In this document: piece after piece, positions 1 through 4,227 of the stretch
Position numbering within the stretch: the stretch's first letter is position 1
How the letters are laid out: every line of letters begins with the position of its first letter
Virus record (IMG/VR): IMGVR_UViG_2554235189_000008
Direction: 5' to 3' (one strand)
DNA: 4,227 nt
Origin: a virus
Lineage: Duplodnaviria; Heunggongvirae; Uroviricota; Caudoviricetes
Notes under the pieces: generated by a model
What the model was told of the DNA's origin: nothing
What the model saw: only the letters and a program-made list of their open reading frames with translations
Databases searched by the model: none
Program-made: the position numbers and the translations under genes

Positions 1-19
1 GGATTCCCGGGGCGGTTCA
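1..19 (-). mobile_element. Terminal inverted repeat (left end) of an IS3-family insertion sequence, IS629/IS1203-like; the element body lies outside the window to the left
   Basis: Reverse complement of 1-19 is TGAACCGCCCCGGGAATCC, an 18/20 inverted match to 4168-4187. It starts with TG as IS3-family termini do, and the lambda-like O reading frame breaks exactly at 19/20. The IS629 name is from memory. Confidence 0.6.
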
Positions 20-223
20 GTCCATTGGTTTATTCCACCCATAGGTTTTACGCAGAATGGCAAGCAGCACTTTAAACTGTCGCTTGGTCAGATCTGCGCC
101 TGAATAAGCCTCAATCAGCATATTTGATAGTCTGGCGTAACCATCATCGAGATCTGCCACATTACGCTCCTGTTCGGCAAAGTTACCTCTGCCGAAGTTG
201 AGTATTTTTGCTGTATTTGTCAT
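17..223 (-). pseudogene. O: Replication initiator O, N-terminal 68 codons only, truncated by the IS insertion
   Basis: Translation MTNTAKILNFGRGNFAEQERNVADLDDGYARLSNMLIEAYSGADLTKRQFKVLLAILRKTYGWNKPMD matches my memory of the lambda O N-terminus almost residue for residue. The in-frame stop (revcomp of 17-19) is supplied by the IS terminus TGA. No ori or O C-terminal domain is present. Confidence 0.8.
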
Positions 224-233: not shown

Positions 234-309
234 GTGGATTGATCCAGTAATTCCCTCAGAATTCCATCTGGATTTGTTCAGAACGCTCGGTTGCCGCCGG
301 GCGTTTTTT
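234..309 (+). ncRNA. oop: oop-like antisense RNA (antisense to the 3' end of cII)
   Basis: Plus-strand sequence GATCCAGTAAT...CCATCTGGATTTGTTCAGAACGCTCGGTTGCCGCCGGGCGTTTTTTATT is close to the lambda oop/t0 region as I recall it. It ends in a GC-rich hairpin plus T6 and lies in the cII-O junction overlapping the cII 3' end. Confidence 0.55.
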
Positions 310-552
310 ATTGGTGATTCCATCAAGCGCATACTTAAAAGCCCTGCTAATCGGACTGATGTCTGATGCCATTCCGAAAGCACACAGGACCGAAGCAATA
401 AACCGCCAGTCCGTTCTGCTTATCTTCGATTCATGACAGCCAATCATCTTTGCCAGACCGCGCTGGGTAAGCGTTGACAGGTTGATGAGTAAATCAGTTT
501 CAGCGCGATCAATTTCTCGCTGTGATAGTTTGCTGTAACTTGTTTGTTCCAT
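256..552 (-). CDS. cII: cII-like transcriptional activator (mosaic: C-terminus matches lambda cII, N-terminal two-thirds diverged)
   Basis: 98-aa ORF. C-terminal ...TNKKRPAATERSEQIQMEF is identical to the lambda cII C-terminus as I recall it. Position between cro and O is syntenic with lambda. Confidence 0.85.
   Translation of the reverse strand: MEQTSYSKLSQREIDRAETDLLINLSTLTQRGLAKMIGCHESKISRTDWRFIASVLCAFGMASDISPISRAFKYALDGITNKKRPAATERSEQIQMEF
284..309 (+). terminator. Rho-independent terminator (oop terminator, lambda t0-like)
   Basis: Stem CGCTCGG (284-290) / CCGGGCG (297-303) with one G-U pair, loop TTGCCG, followed by TTTTTT (304-309). Confidence 0.7.
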
Positions 553-690: not shown

Positions 691-924
691 TTATGCAGCC
701 GATGCTCTACGCGATACGAACACTAGGTTTTCCTTTTTCACAGGTTTATAACCCGTGAAATTACGAGTAGCTTCTTCGATTGCATTCGCTTTATCAGGGG
801 AAGCTCTTCGAAATCCATATGCAATCTGGTCAAGATAGCCAACTGAAGTTTTCGCTAATGCGGCGAGTCGCTTCCATTCCTCACTAGAAGCCTCTTTTCG
901 CCAGCGTAGTAGTTCATTACTCAT
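691..924 (-). CDS. cro: Cro-like HTH repressor, divergent from cI
   Basis: 77-aa ORF transcribed divergently from cI across the operator region. SD GGAGG (revcomp of 931-935) lies 6 nt before the ATG. Probable HTH in ...TSVGYLDQIAYGFRRASPDKANAIEEAT... Confidence 0.75.
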   Translation of the reverse strand: MSNELLRWRKEASSEEWKRLAALAKTSVGYLDQIAYGFRRASPDKANAIEEATRNFTGYKPVKKENLVFVSRRASAA

Positions 925-1037: not shown

Positions 1038-1742
1038 ATGGAAAACAAAGATATTCGCAAATCGAATCTGGCGTTTTTGCTAGATGAGCATAAAAAAATC
1101 GCGGGTAACACTAATGCAAGCTTTGCCGATAAGCTTGGGGTTAGCCCTTCTCAACTCACGCAAGTCTCCGGTGAAAAAAGCACTCGAAACATAGGGGATA
1201 AACTAGCAAGAAAATTTGAAGCCGCGCTTGGGTTACCTAATGGGTGGCTTGATTTGGTACATGATGTAACACCAATTGCATCATGCTCAGATTCTTTAAC
1301 TTTTGTCGGTCAGGTAAGAAAAGGGTTAGTGCGCGTGGTTGGTGAGGCAATTCTTGGTGTTGATGGTGCCATCGAGATGACCGAAGAGCGCGATGGGTGG
1401 CTCAAAATTTATAGCGATGATCCAGATGCCTTTGGTCTTCGTGTGAAAGGAGACAGCATGTGGCCCAGAATAAAATCAGGAGAATATGTACTCATTGAGC
1501 CTAACACCAAAGTATTCCCGGGTGATGAGGTGTTTGTCAGAACCGTTGAAGGACACAACATGATTAAGGTTCTTGGCTATGACAGAGATGGAGAATACCA
1601 ATTTACAAGCATTAACCAGGATCACAGGCCTATAACGTTGCCTTATCATCAAGTAGCAAAGGTGGAGTATGTAGCTGGTATTCTGAAGCAATCTCGCCAT
1701 CTGGATGACATCGAGGCAAGGGAGTGGCTGAAAAGTTCGTGA
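1038..1742 (+). CDS. cI: CI-type prophage repressor, N-terminal HTH plus C-terminal S24 (LexA-like) autopeptidase domain
   Basis: 234-aa ORF. HTH-like segment ASFADKLGVSPSQLTQVSG, and the S24 catalytic-serine motif GDSMWP with a downstream Lys (MIKVL). Divergent from cro across the operators. Confidence 0.9.
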   Translation: MENKDIRKSNLAFLLDEHKKIAGNTNASFADKLGVSPSQLTQVSGEKSTRNIGDKLARKFEAALGLPNGWLDLVHDVTPIASCSDSLTFVGQVRKGLVRVVGEAILGVDGAIEMTEERDGWLKIYSDDPDAFGLRVKGDSMWPRIKSGEYVLIEPNTKVFPGDEVFVRTVEGHNMIKVLGYDRDGEYQFTSINQDHRPITLPYHQVAKVEYVAGILKQSRHLDDIEAREWLKSS

Positions 1743-1802
1743 CTTCATCGTCACATAGCTGGTAACCAGTGGCCAGAAGAAACGTTTGGGTGAGGAGGAT
1801 AG

Positions 1803-2144
1803 ATGGCGTTCACTGACCTTGAATATCAAGCGGTCAAAAAAGAAGTTCACCAATTCATTGAAAGCATAAGGCCGCCTGAACATATCCGCAATGAACTGGA
1901 TATTGTTTATAGCATCAATGACCAAACGATAGATATCGGCGAACAGCGCCCCGTGTGGCAGGGCAACCCAGGTGAAACAAACATCCTGCCATCAGCAAGA
2001 ATCAAGTACATACGTTCTCTGGATAGATGGAAAATCTATTGGATGCGGAAGGATATGAAATGGCATCAGTACAGTACTGAACTTTCGCTGACTGATGCGC
2101 TTGAGCTTGTGCGTGCTGACCCGGATTGCTGCTTCTTCGGATGA
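1803..2144 (+). CDS. Hypothetical protein (113 aa), first gene of the cI-downstream accessory cassette
   Basis: Strong SD GAGGAGG (1792-1798) 4 nt before ATG 1803. Co-directional with cI, 60-bp gap after the cI stop. Trp-rich C-terminal half and a terminal DPDCCFFG. I cannot assign a family. Confidence 0.75.
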   Translation: MAFTDLEYQAVKKEVHQFIESIRPPEHIRNELDIVYSINDQTIDIGEQRPVWQGNPGETNILPSARIKYIRSLDRWKIYWMRKDMKWHQYSTELSLTDALELVRADPDCCFFG

Positions 2145-2214
2145 GTGAAGAGACGTTTGGATGATGGATGATCGCAGAGATGCTCGTAGAGCATACAGCG
2201 ATGCAGGAGAATTT

Positions 2215-2649
2215 ATGGCACTTAATTTAGAAAGAATATCTTTTATAACCCCATTTGATAGCAGCGAAGAACCCAACCAACCGACGCTTAATTTTACATG
2301 CAATGAATTTCCTGCGCGGCTATCAATTGATTTCAGGGTTGGTATGATCGGGTTGAAACCAAATTCAAGATATAATTTGGGTATTATGGTAATCCCCGCG
2401 CACCTAATTATAAAAAAAGGTGAGGAAATTCAATTCCCTGACGGCTCTTCGGAATCAGTTTCACTTTTCATCGATACGAAAGATAGCCATTTTGAAACAG
2501 GGGTTGGCGGACAGGTAATAGTAACATTGAAAGAAATTAGGGTCCCAGCTAAAGGGCTGTATAGTGTTATAGGGATATTGCAAGATAATGAAGACCCTAA
2601 AAATGAACTTCATAAAAATGAATCATTTTTCACCGTAGAGCTATTATGA
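2215..2649 (+). CDS. Hypothetical protein (144 aa from ATG 2215; the longest ORF starts at 2161 and gives 162 aa), second gene of the accessory cassette
   Basis: ATG 2215 is preceded by AGGAG (2205-2209) at 5-nt spacing; ATG 2161 has no good SD. The stop TGA (2647-2649) overlaps the next gene's ATG (2646-2648). No recognisable motif. Confidence 0.7.
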   Translation: MALNLERISFITPFDSSEEPNQPTLNFTCNEFPARLSIDFRVGMIGLKPNSRYNLGIMVIPAHLIIKKGEEIQFPDGSSESVSLFIDTKDSHFETGVGGQVIVTLKEIRVPAKGLYSVIGILQDNEDPKNELHKNESFFTVELL

Positions 2650-3266
2650 GTGACGACAGTAATTTAAATAATCATGGAAAGCAAGACACCAACATATCTG
2701 AAAGCCGGAGGTTGAAGGTTGTTGGCGGTTCCGATTTTGAGGCTGAATTTGATAATTCTCCCACCAAGGTGCAAAATAATTACATAAAACCGCCACAAAC
2801 GGAGGAAGAAGTGGGAACGATCAGCAGAGAGGAACTTGATGCTCGCTTAGCTGCTAATAAAGCAGAGATGGAGTCTATTGCTTCTTCCATTAGGGCTGAC
2901 ATGGCTCTATCTCGTGAAAGCGTTAATGTCCAATTTGCATCACTTAATGCAGCCATAAGCTCTCTATCGTCCAAGATCGATGGAAAGATGGATAGCGCTG
3001 CTGGCGATATAAAAGCAATTAATGGGAGATTCGAAGGAATTCAAGGACAAATAACAGGGGTTAATACCGCAATTAGTGGTGTTCAGTCGGGTATTTCTAT
3101 ACGATTAGCCATTTTTAGTGTCATTATCGCTGTAATAGTTGCGATTCCCGGGCTGGTATCAGCTTTAAAGTCAGACCACGCACCTTTGCAACAGCCTTCC
3201 ACTTTGCAAGCGCCGCCACAAAATACCCAGCCAACAGACAACAAAAAAACCACTCCCCAGCATTAA
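2646..3266 (+). CDS. Hypothetical membrane-anchored protein (206 aa): N-terminal soluble region with predicted coiled-coil character, one C-terminal TM helix, Pro/Gln-rich tail
   Basis: Single hydrophobic stretch IRLAIFSVIIAVIVAIPGLVSAL (about residues 152-173, nt ~3100-3165). Preceding Ala/Ser/Ile-rich heptad-like sequence. ATGA start/stop overlap with the upstream gene. Confidence 0.75.
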   Translation: MSDDSNLNNHGKQDTNISESRRLKVVGGSDFEAEFDNSPTKVQNNYIKPPQTEEEVGTISREELDARLAANKAEMESIASSIRADMALSRESVNVQFASLNAAISSLSSKIDGKMDSAAGDIKAINGRFEGIQGQITGVNTAISGVQSGISIRLAIFSVIIAVIVAIPGLVSALKSDHAPLQQPSTLQAPPQNTQPTDNKKTTPQH

Positions 3267-3272
3267 CGCATT

Positions 3273-3300
3273 AACCCGGCCTCAGCGCCGGGTTTTCTTT
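3273..3300 (+). terminator. Rho-independent terminator ending the cI/accessory operon
   Basis: AACCCGGC (3273-3280), loop CTCAGC, GCCGGGTT (3287-3294), then TTTTCTTT through 3300. It starts 7 nt after the stop of the last cassette gene. Confidence 0.7.
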
Positions 3301-3404: not shown

Positions 3405-3530
3405 TTTATTTATCCTGTCGAATTCCTACAACAAAATAAAACACCATAAGAATCAATACGATATTTGAAAACCAAGAGAATTTATCATTTTGCTATTGCC
3501 ATTAATTTATCATTCCGATAAAGTTCACCC
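3405..3530 (+). promoter_or_regulatory. OL/PL-like region: TTTATC operator sites (3409-3414; 17-mers 3481-3497 and 3506-3522) and PL-like promoter (-35 TTGCCA 3496-3501, 17-nt spacer, -10 TAAAGT 3519-3524)
   Basis: Site 3506-3522 TTTATCATTCCGATAAA is a perfect inverted repeat of the half-site seen in OR and overlaps the -10. The same -10 hexamer TAAAGT is used by the PR candidate. Confidence 0.45.
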
Positions 3531-3592
3531 ATCAGCAGGACGCACTACTCACCAGGGCGGTGAATATACAACGATTCGAATATGAATCTACG

Positions 3593-3607
3593 GCGCTGAC
3601 AAAGCGC
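3593..3607 (+). promoter_or_regulatory. nutL boxB-like RNA hairpin (5'-GCGCU GACAA AGCGC-3')
   Basis: 5-bp stem plus GACAA pentaloop about 60 nt downstream of the PL candidate and upstream of N. Core identical to the nutR candidate at 639-651. Confidence 0.45.
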
Positions 3608-3772: not shown

Positions 3773-4156
3773 ATGACACGCAGAACTCAGTTCAAAGGCA
3801 ATTCACATTCTCGTCGTCGTGAGCGTTTAAAGGCAAAGGCATTAGCTAACGGCGTGCTGGCCCGCGAAGAAGCAATAAGTTCAGAAGTATTACACCGCCC
3901 TACTCTAAGCAGAGCGCAGATTCAGGCTAAAGGTACTCACGAAACGCCTGAGCGCATAGAAGACGCTAAGCCAATTAAGTTCATGGCACAGGACGTGATC
4001 TGGCAGCAGAAAGAATACAGACGCAATCTGGAGCGAGCGGCCATTGTGTACGCGAATGAGTTTGGACATAAGCAACCAGAAACTGGTGTATGTCTTCCAA
4101 ACGTAGCCATTTACGCTGCAGGCTACCGGAAATCCAAACAACTGACAGCAAGATAA
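3773..4156 (+). CDS. N: N-like transcription antitermination protein (127 aa)
   Basis: N-terminal arginine-rich motif GNSHSRRRERLKAKALANG resembles the lambda N ARM (QTRRRERRAEKQAQW). Position downstream of OL/PL and a boxB hairpin. SD AGGAGG 5 nt before the ATG. From memory the sequence resembles N of H-19B/933W-type phages. Confidence 0.75.
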   Translation: MTRRTQFKGNSHSRRRERLKAKALANGVLAREEAISSEVLHRPTLSRAQIQAKGTHETPERIEDAKPIKFMAQDVIWQQKEYRRNLERAAIVYANEFGHKQPETGVCLPNVAIYAAGYRKSKQLTAR

Positions 4157-4168
4157 CTTGTGTTGGTC

Positions 4169-4227
4169 TGAACCGCCCCGGGTTTCCTGGAGAGTGTTTT
4201 ATCTGTGAACTCAGGCTGCCAGATCAT
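4169..4227 (-). mobile_element. Right end of an IS3-family insertion sequence (IS629/IS1203-like): terminal inverted repeat plus the last codons of its transposase on the minus strand; the element continues beyond the window
   Basis: 4169-4193 TGAACCGCCCCGGGTTTCCTGGAGA is the inverted partner of 1-19. The minus strand reads ...GAT GAT CTG GCA GCC TGA (stop = revcomp of 4211-4213), matching my recollection of the IS629 orfB 3' end. Confidence 0.65.

Follow-up and report, generated by a model that had tools for sequence, protein, structure and literature searches.

Non-coding relics of a lambda-type cI gene end at cassette junctions of a lambdoid immunity region

A 4,227-nt stretch of DNA from the Caudoviricetes record IMGVR_UViG_2554235189_000008 (referred to here, at its full length, as the window) contains a motif of 19 nt twice, each time in the short gap in front of an accessory gene located downstream of a cI-type repressor gene. 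Sequence comparison indicates that this motif is the 3'-terminal coding sequence of the lambda-type cI repressor gene, left in the window as non-coding relics. The motif belongs to an island of approximately 27 nt, ..CAG TGG CCT GAA GAG ACG TTT GGN TGA (Q-W-P-E-E-T-F-G-stop), which we refer to as T. The explanation that we favor, with a probability of roughly 80%, is that the two copies are dead cI tails at cassette junctions, that T would serve as a short homology patch for the exchange of cassettes, and that it has no regulatory role; the same estimate covers its core (GAAGARACGTTTGG), for which we propose no sequence-specific regulatory role.

The sequence-only reading from which we started had reported the repeat without database searches, and the repeat is real. 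Copy 1 (AAGAAACGTTTGGGTGAGG) is found at 1777-1795, as reported, and copy 2 (AAGAGACGTTTGGATGATG) is present at 2148-2166, one base away from the 2147-2165 that had been given. The 2 copies are indeed identical at 16 of 19 positions, and at 17 of 20 once the common 5' G is added (1776-1795 vs 2147-2166). Gene coordinates also confirm that each copy lies in a gap in front of a gene: copy 1 between the cI stop codon (1740-1742) and the start of a DUF3024 gene (1803), and copy 2 beginning 2 nt past the DUF3024 stop codon (2142-2144), upstream of the next gene. The features around the 2 copies are:

1038-1742, plus strand: cI-type repressor gene, 234 amino acids (aa), helix-turn-helix (HTH) and S24/LexA-like peptidase domain (Pfam Peptidase_S24, 3.8e-16)
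1755-1793 (39 nt), plus strand: relic 1, non-coding remnant of a lambda-family cI 3' end, I-A-G-N-Q-W-P-E-E-T-F-G-stop
1794-1802, plus strand: Shine-Dalgarno sequence GGAGG and spacer of the DUF3024 gene, read from the sequence
1803-2144, plus strand: DUF3024 protein gene, the first cassette, 113 aa (Pfam DUF3024, 2.4e-31, full length)
2147-2164, plus strand: relic 2, GAAGAGACGTTTGGATGA, E-E-T-F-G-stop, non-coding, identified by homology to the lambda cI end
2165-2183, plus strand: post-cI relic, consisting of a 6-nt spacer (TGGATG) and the 5' half and loop of a terminator (ATCGCAGAGATGC)
2215-2649, plus strand: first gene of the second cassette, 144 aa, ATG at 2215 preceded by AGGAG (PHROG 5893, 2e-50)

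Relic 1 holds most of copy 1 (1776/1777-1793), the final 2 bases of which (1794-1795) belong to the ribosome-binding site of the DUF3024 gene and not to the cI relic. Relic 2 spans copy 2 minus its final 2 bases.

The identity of the motif follows from comparison with lambda-type cI genes. GAAGARACGTTTGGNTGA is the 3' end of these genes, that of lambda included, where it forms the codons E-E-T-F-G-stop, and the last codons of lambda cI are GAAGAGACGTTTGGCTGA. Copy 1 matches this end at 17 of 18 bases, and at 24 of 27 when the preceding Q-W-P codons are included; copy 2 is identical at 17 of 18. In 2 related loci (L001 and L005), a 237-aa LexA-family lambda-type cI terminates in ...GKVIASQWPEETFG* exactly on the motif (G-K-V-I-A-S-Q-W-P-E-E-T-F-G-stop; last codons GAA GAG ACG TTT GGG TGA). 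The intact cI of L001 is directly followed by the second-cassette gene that begins at 2215 in the window, and the cI stop of L005 by GGAGGATAG-ATG and a DUF3024 gene. Seven aligned cI ends share the invariant block GAAGA-ACGTTTGG-TGA. The homology to the cI locus extends to the flanks, the QWP codons in the case of copy 1 and the terminator hairpin in that of copy 2. An "empty" locus (L037) shows the complete arrangement, in which the cI tail is followed by TGAAAG and then by GGTCGCACAGAAGTGCGGCC and a T-run that is called as an intrinsic terminator.

The cI gene of the window itself (PHROG 4 transcriptional repressor; LexA family regulator in the annotation of homologous loci) represents a heterologous allele relative to lambda cI, with its own stop codon at 1740-1742. 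Within the window, neither copy ends a full-length repressor frame, the frames being open for only 16 and 14 codons since the previous stop. Because these frames are short and the real cI stops at 1740-1742, both copies are relics and not functional gene ends. Relic 1, which reads LHRHIAGNQWPEETFG* when its frame is followed, was aligned with the cI ends of lambda, L001, and L005. It is located behind the window-type cI allele irrespective of the downstream content (L002-L004). One locus (L293) carries the window-type allele without any relic behind it, and similarity to the window breaks there at 1747. As a separate observation, relic 1 is in the cI frame with the TGA at 1740-1742 as the sole separator, so that readthrough would add 17 residues ending in QWPEETFG, the C terminus of the lambda protein; this in-frame placement could be due to chance (1 in 3). 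A near-Chi sequence (GCTGGTAA) is present at 1758-1765, adjoining copy 1.

Considered on the window alone, the repeat does not exceed chance, because 55% of dinucleotide shuffles of the window contain a same-strand pair of 19-mers that agree at 16 or more positions (for a 17/20 pair, the figure is 25%); a single-pattern test in the window gave 0 expected matches, but this test is post hoc. The frequency of such pairs in shuffled windows would favor a chance similarity of 2 unrelated intergenic stretches. We nevertheless discard this explanation, since both copies and their flanks are homologous to the lambda cI end and recur at the same positions in all related loci. Moreover, a scan of 426 kb with the 14-nt core, allowing up to 2 mismatches, produced 241 matches, all of them on the cI strand and none on the other, and detected 2 T copies in 65 loci.

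To place the motif in other phages, viral contigs were scanned for GAAGARACGTTTGGNTRA, which identified at least 120 loci. At least 139 occurrences were studied (the viral-contig matches listed, E. coli loci that were fetched, lambda, and the window), and the comparison extended to approximately 180 related loci overall; the counts in this paragraph and the linkage patterns described further below refer to these listed matches. The motif was present in every related locus examined, and the refutation by absence from homologous loci that the sequence-only reading had allowed for thus fails. Among the listed matches, 75 end an open reading frame (ORF) of cI length and 64 are relics behind heterologous cI alleles or cassette genes. 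T is flanked by 22 upstream and 45 downstream sequence clusters. In pairs of loci sharing the upstream cluster but not the downstream one, similarity is lost at a median of 0 nt past the stop codon (95% within 5 nt), and in pairs sharing the downstream cluster but not the upstream one it is lost at a median of 9 nt to the left of GAAGAG, which corresponds to the Q-W-P codons. The length of about 27 nt assigned to T derives from these 2 breaks. T is therefore a short sequence conserved between otherwise unrelated modules. By comparison of the sequences, this conservation reflects descent from a coding sequence and not regulation.

Samples collected in other ways gave similar pictures. A megablast search of positions 1700-3300 of the window against complete E. 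coli genomes returned pieces that start at 1770 and 2146 and end at 1747, 1793, 1803, and 2183, and the mosaic breakpoints thus hug both copies. In a motif-independent sample of 80 lambda-immunity loci, chosen by a cI protein 98% to 100% identical to that of lambda, about 20 different sequences begin right at the cI stop codon, and the downstream sequence of lambda itself is found in only 15 of the 80. Genome contigs were scanned with an 18-nt pattern, for which we calculated approximately 280 chance matches in 596 Gb; the QWPEETFG context accompanied only 14 of the 121 matches, and T was found in Pantoea, Mixta, and another Enterobacteriaceae genome. A cI-rexA junction identical to that of lambda was also seen on scaffolds of 221 and 397 nt (L214 and L217) in Limosilactobacillus and Amphritea assemblies. 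These and similar lambda-identical matches on short scaffolds are most likely vector or spike-in contamination.

The DUF3024 unit was analyzed in 57 loci gathered with a 24-nt anchor inside the DUF3024 gene, which avoids selection on the motif. Copy 2 lies 2 bases past the DUF3024 stop codon in all 57. The unit occurs in 3 upstream contexts (intact lambda-type cI; the cI of the window plus relic; a third cI plus relic) and in 4 downstream contexts (a Ser/Thr kinase-gene cassette; the two-gene cassette of the window; a third type; the cassette of L166), and 9 of the 12 possible combinations were observed. In L166, DUF3024 is followed by a hybrid copy 2 (GGGTGA instead of GGATGA) and by a cassette that elsewhere lies directly behind an intact cI, with the break in similarity exactly at the copy 2 stop. 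Similarity to other DUF3024 arrangements stops at 2183, the megablast breakpoint. Near-precise presence and absence are seen before the same cassette: DUF3024 plus T is found in L052 and the window and is missing from L001 and L093, in which the 2215 gene lies directly behind an intact lambda-type cI. Two loci (L007 and L028) carry a divergent, pseudogenized DUF3024 allele, then a badly decayed copy 2 (GAAAAGAGATTTAGGAGA), and then the complete terminator, which indicates that the cI-T-DUF3024-T-terminator arrangement is old. Other lineages have the copy 2 variant GAAGAGACATTTTGGTGA. Judged from these variants, copy 2 drifts as a neutral sequence would.

DUF3024 is not the only gene enclosed by 2 T copies. 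There are 6 kinds of such T-X-T unit, and the 5 besides DUF3024 (371 nt between copies) mostly contain tiny membrane-peptide genes. They are listed by the distance between copies, with regions of the peptide genes in cI orientation:

87 nt: gene for a 23-aa hydrophobic peptide (L064, L110; region 7552-7656 of L064)
125 nt: gene for a 32-aa peptide, MKIGYIF... (L119, L125; region 3481-3623 of L119)
192 nt: gene for a 52-aa membrane protein (L018; region 4261-4470)
213 nt: 2 peptide genes split by a third, degenerate T, then a terminator hairpin (L115; region 3991-4225)
539 nt: peptide, lipoprotein, and peptide genes (L092, Pantoea L223; region 1153-1709 of L092)

The internal (second) copies keep approximately 14 to 26 nt of cI, and the relics behind heterologous cI alleles are longer (39 to 50 nt). 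The left edge of the second copy varies by unit (GT|GAAGAG, TAG|GCCGGAAGAG, GTGGCCTGA overlapping a stop, and others), which means that the duplicated length is not fixed. The very small hydrophobic peptide genes (23, 32, and 52 aa; e.g., MKIGYIFPAVCGIAGIALLVWFIASGAWMPGA) located directly behind prophage repressor genes, each followed by a variously decayed copy of the cI tail, are an observation in their own right; most of them would escape routine annotation.

The variants of T indicate where exchange may have taken place. Variable sites that precede the 14-nt core change together with the upstream cluster, and the positions after it, from the third base of the Gly codon through the stop codon (TGA/TAA) and onward, change together with the downstream cluster. 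The minor variants GGCTGA, GGTTAA, and GGGTAA move with their own cassette into different upstream contexts, relic ones included. All loci with the window-type cI and its relic have the same junction between the two, and 9 different cassettes are found behind it, several of them identical, Gly/stop variant included, to cassettes behind an intact lambda-type cI. The presence of 9 cassettes behind one fixed junction would place the left end of the exchange events within the relic. From these linkage patterns, we infer that exchange has occurred within the conserved sequence.

Our proposal for how the locus arose is the following. The ancestral order would have been cI-T-terminator. DUF3024 would then have joined in, with T ending up on both of its sides, and the two-gene cassette (2215-3266) would subsequently have joined inside the terminator hairpin. 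Copy 1 would be left from an older lambda-family cI whose body was replaced by a heterologous cI allele or, worded alternatively, would date from the arrival of a T-DUF3024 cassette behind that allele; copy 2 would be a second cI tail that still carries half of the cI terminator hairpin. No sequence other than T is shared across many different upstream and downstream modules, and similarity is lost at both borders of T. Because it is shared by otherwise different modules, T probably acts as a homology patch: general or phage-encoded recombination would cross over in it, so that cassettes could be swapped, stacked, and deleted in the repressor-to-N slot leaving cI undamaged. The short internal copies might be explained by their size, since long direct repeats close together would be quickly lost by recombination and shorter ones would cut the start signals of the next gene. 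By analogy with cI-rexAB of lambda, a single transcript that starts at the repressor promoter and ends at the terminator (3273-3294) may carry cI and the cassette genes.

Several points weigh against this proposal. The first placing of T on both sides of DUF3024 requires an illegitimate join or a duplication, the second copies are uniformly short (approximately 14 to 26 nt), for which the explanation offered above is tentative, and the crossover role of T is read from linkage patterns. Most loci were collected with the motif as bait; junctions that destroyed T were thus invisible, and the invariance of the core is by construction because the motif was the search pattern. Lambda-immunity phages with cI 98% to 100% identical could cross over anywhere in cI and not specifically in T, and only the heterologous contexts pin crossovers, to approximately 39 nt. 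Finally, a few cassettes (D4, D16, and D20) have different Gly/stop variants in different contexts.

The sequence-only reading had offered 2 interpretations of the repeat, a shared regulatory or RNA-processing site and a duplicated gene-entry junction from modular acquisition. The second agrees with our results, in that each copy is a cI 3'-end relic at a recombination junction. The first, in which the motif would be a cis-regulatory or RNA-processing element (operator, internal promoter, RNase site, or translational coupling signal) in front of each cassette gene, found no support and in our view is barely plausible. The 2 copies do lie in transcribed gaps just 5' of genes, copy 1 adjoins the DUF3024 Shine-Dalgarno sequence, and copy 2 creates a 7-codon mini-ORF that overlaps both the DUF3024 stop and the ATG at 2161. 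However, scans for promoters and terminators detected no such site at either copy, RNA folding of both copies and their gaps gave nothing beyond shuffled sequences (z of -0.2 to -0.8), and a search of Rfam at a permissive E-value returned, as the only overlap with copy 2, an archaeal snoRNA model (20.5 bits vs a gathering threshold of 44) that we take as noise. The palindromic core AAACGTTT that had been pointed out is present, in copy 1 only; as a binding site it was rejected, being a G-to-A change of some lineages that is not conserved (copy 2, lambda, and most loci have AGACGTTT). In addition, the part common to both copies is not a ribosome-binding site, the gene after copy 2 having its own AGGAG 40 nt downstream; copy 2 gathers substitutions in other lineages; the cI allele of the window and the cassettes behind it are found elsewhere with no relic in front or with a T that is intact and coding; and the third cassette gene (2646) has no copy in front of it.

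Two further explanations accept the origin of the motif in cI and differ on what T does. In one of them, the copies are scars of independent illegitimate junctions clustered by selection for an intact cI and compact genomes, and T is idle in later exchanges. This agrees with the prevailing view that most phage mosaic boundaries result from illegitimate recombination followed by selection (PMC3029335), the right-hand breaks coincide exactly with a gene boundary, as selection would suffice to explain, and T could not have come to lie behind DUF3024 without at least one illegitimate join. We still consider it unlikely, since independent illegitimate events would not recreate the one left junction that is found with 9 cassettes, and since the linkage switches across the core and L166 carries a hybrid T. 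Less likely again is that T is the target or attachment site of a dedicated insertion mechanism, either integron-like (attC/attI) or transposition with target duplication. The 6 T-flanked units (87, 125, 192, 213, 371, and 539 nt) always have their copies in the same orientation, the second one is always only approximately 14 to 26 nt, and in L115 three T-like copies separate 2 peptide genes, all of which could fit such a mechanism. The duplicated length of a transposon target site would be constant, but here it changes with the left edge of the second copy, and inspection by eye shows no terminal inverted repeats where the DUF3024 insert begins and ends. Nor does T resemble an attC-type or other site-specific recombination site: no internal inverted repeat, hairpin, or stable fold is predicted in it, and the window contains no recombinase gene. 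Returning to cI tails that serve as a homology patch, both processes seem to have been at work and can be distinguished, with fixed illegitimate joins setting a relic behind the heterologous repressor and behind DUF3024, and repeated exchanges within the approximately 27 nt of T reshuffling what lies downstream.

A more speculative extension, which we hold to be doubtful, is that the T-X-T genes (DUF3024 and several of the 23- to 52-aa membrane peptides) are portable cassettes that short-homology recombination at T moves, stacks, and removes among lambdoid prophages, possibly by way of excised T-X circles comparable to the PeSL (promoter-early stem-loop) mini-circles of T4-type phages. If true, the repressor-to-N slot would be a recombinase-independent, integron-like array of small lysogeny-expressed genes, and the internal copies of approximately 14 to 26 nt would represent a trade-off of mobility against stability.

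The window is a lambdoid immunity (prophage) region, read along the leftward transcription of lambda in the order O', cII, cro-like, cI, three accessory genes, terminator, pL/nutL, and N. The remaining features are:

17-223, minus strand: start of the replication protein O gene
256-552, minus strand: cII gene
691-924, minus strand: cro-like gene
2646-3266, plus strand: second gene of the second cassette, 206 aa, hydrophobic stretch near the C terminus (PHROG 5820, 9e-77)
3273-3294, plus strand: intrinsic terminator, 8-bp stem with 6 G-C pairs and a T-run (terminator scan)
3496-3524, plus strand: pL-like promoter (promoter scan)
3773-4156, plus strand: N antiterminator gene

The DUF3024 protein has a full-length match to PDC-S43, a family of candidate phage-defence proteins in PADLOC (7e-42), and also matches PHROG 3467. 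This gene occupies the lysogeny-expressed slot that contains rexAB in lambda, and DUF3024 is little mentioned in the literature searched. The start codon of the first gene of the second cassette at 2215 is backed by the PHROG profile, which begins at residue 3 of the 144-aa form, and by the annotation of L001 by the Prokaryotic Genome Annotation Pipeline (PGAP). The longest ORF of this gene opens at 2161, and PGAP gives the resulting 162-aa form in 2 genomes. The N-terminal extension (2161-2214) is nonetheless unlikely to be coding, as it consists of relic sequence, 18 open codons are expected by chance in approximately 40% of cases, and both the profile and L001 start at 2215. The mini-ORF formed by copy 2 reads ATG AGT GAA GAG ACG TTT GGA TGA (window 2141-2166); its ATG (2141) overlaps the DUF3024 stop (ATGA) and its TGA (2164) overlaps the ATG at 2161. 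A leader hairpin is possible at 2169-2203 (ATCGC..ATGCTC-GTA-GAGCAT..GCGAT), partly formed by the terminator relic, and the whole-gap fold does not surpass that of shuffles (z of -0.56). The start of the second gene (2646) overlaps the stop of the first (ATGA). PHROGs 5893 and 5820 are families without an assigned function, and the second gene has a weak, sub-threshold Pfam match to Baculo_PEP_C. Judging by position, the two-gene cassette (2215-3266) might be a RexAB-like two-component exclusion system.

The terminator at 3273-3294, which would close the transcription unit of cI and the cassettes, sits where lambda has the terminator downstream of rexB. A 19-nt inverted repeat (95% complementary; 3588-3606 on the plus strand and 639-657 on the minus strand) contains GCGCTGACAAAGCGC, a 5-bp stem with a GACAA loop. 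We take this hairpin to be the boxB of the phage P22 nut site. The 2 copies occupy the places expected for nutL, between pL and N, and for nutR, on the downstream side of cro. The sequence AATTTATCAT(A/T)TTGC and related repeats of 15 to 31 nt are found in both divergent promoter regions (951-1019 and 3479-3525) and presumably represent the operators, OR and OL, that belong to this immunity type. The ends of the window (1-16 and 4169-4227) carry inverted copies of TGAACCGCCCCGGG(A/T)(A/T)TCC, which we assume to be the ends of the insertion sequence (IS) IS629. Prophage similarity ceases at 16 and 4168, the sequence beyond matches thousands of E. coli records, and in strain 14EC001 an IS3-family transposase gene is located at the right-hand end. 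The O gene is shortened to 68 codons by the IS end.

These results have consequences for how the region is studied. Since the motif is not regulatory, annotation and reporter work should not treat it as a regulatory element. T provides a widely distributed site at which mosaic junctions formed by homologous exchange at linkers can be tested against illegitimate joins plus selection, and it can be used as an anchor for mining the variable slot behind cI, in which rexAB, bstA, toxin-antitoxin genes, the Ser/Thr kinase cassette, and DUF3024/PDC-S43 are found.

Among known systems, the closest in concept are the linkers of lambdoid phages (PMC3029335). Susskind and Botstein are said to have formulated the modular-evolution hypothesis, in which short conserved linkers join lambdoid phage modules, and Clark and co-workers reportedly described boundary sequences for HK620. 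Like these linkers, T is short, conserved between unrelated modules, and located at a gene boundary, and linkage patterns indicate exchange within it. In contrast to them, it consists of the last codons of a repressor gene and is not a dedicated intergenic element, and it survives as a non-coding relic behind heterologous repressors and cassette genes, sometimes several times per locus. The slot between cI and N is an accessory ("moron") site, occupied by rexAB in lambda and by bstA in BTP1, and Degnan et al. 2007 (as cited in PMC8585504 and PMC7067206) reportedly described it as a hotspot for mosaic diversity and for accessory genes expressed in lysogeny. The cassettes of the window share its position and orientation, downstream of cI and upstream of the terminator, pL, and N, and its highly variable content, but the window has DUF3024 and a two-gene cassette in place of rexAB, and the present finding concerns the junction sequence and not the cargo. 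In T4-type phages, variable ORFs are bordered by PeSL cassettes, through which modules are shuffled and mini-circles are formed (PMC2839356). As with PeSLs, the direct repeats are short and border single non-essential genes of a hyperplastic region, and indels and replacements are bounded by the repeats. PeSLs, however, are a functional promoter plus terminator, whereas T is coding-derived and neither copy in the window has the sigma-70 promoter or terminator stem-loop of such a mobile regulatory cassette. Duplicated gene 3' ends can flank integrated elements, as when the 3' end of a tRNA gene is regenerated at attL and a partial copy lies at attR. The cI locus is similar in that the intact or original 3' end is upstream and a short partial copy lies beyond the inserted DNA; it differs in that no integrase is associated, the inserts are single genes of 87 to 540 nt, and the duplicated length varies. 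The junction scar is thus ordinary phage mosaicism, for which the lambdoid linker sequence is the closest concept and the PeSL repeat the closest mechanistic analogue, and T differs from both as the surviving tail of a repressor gene.

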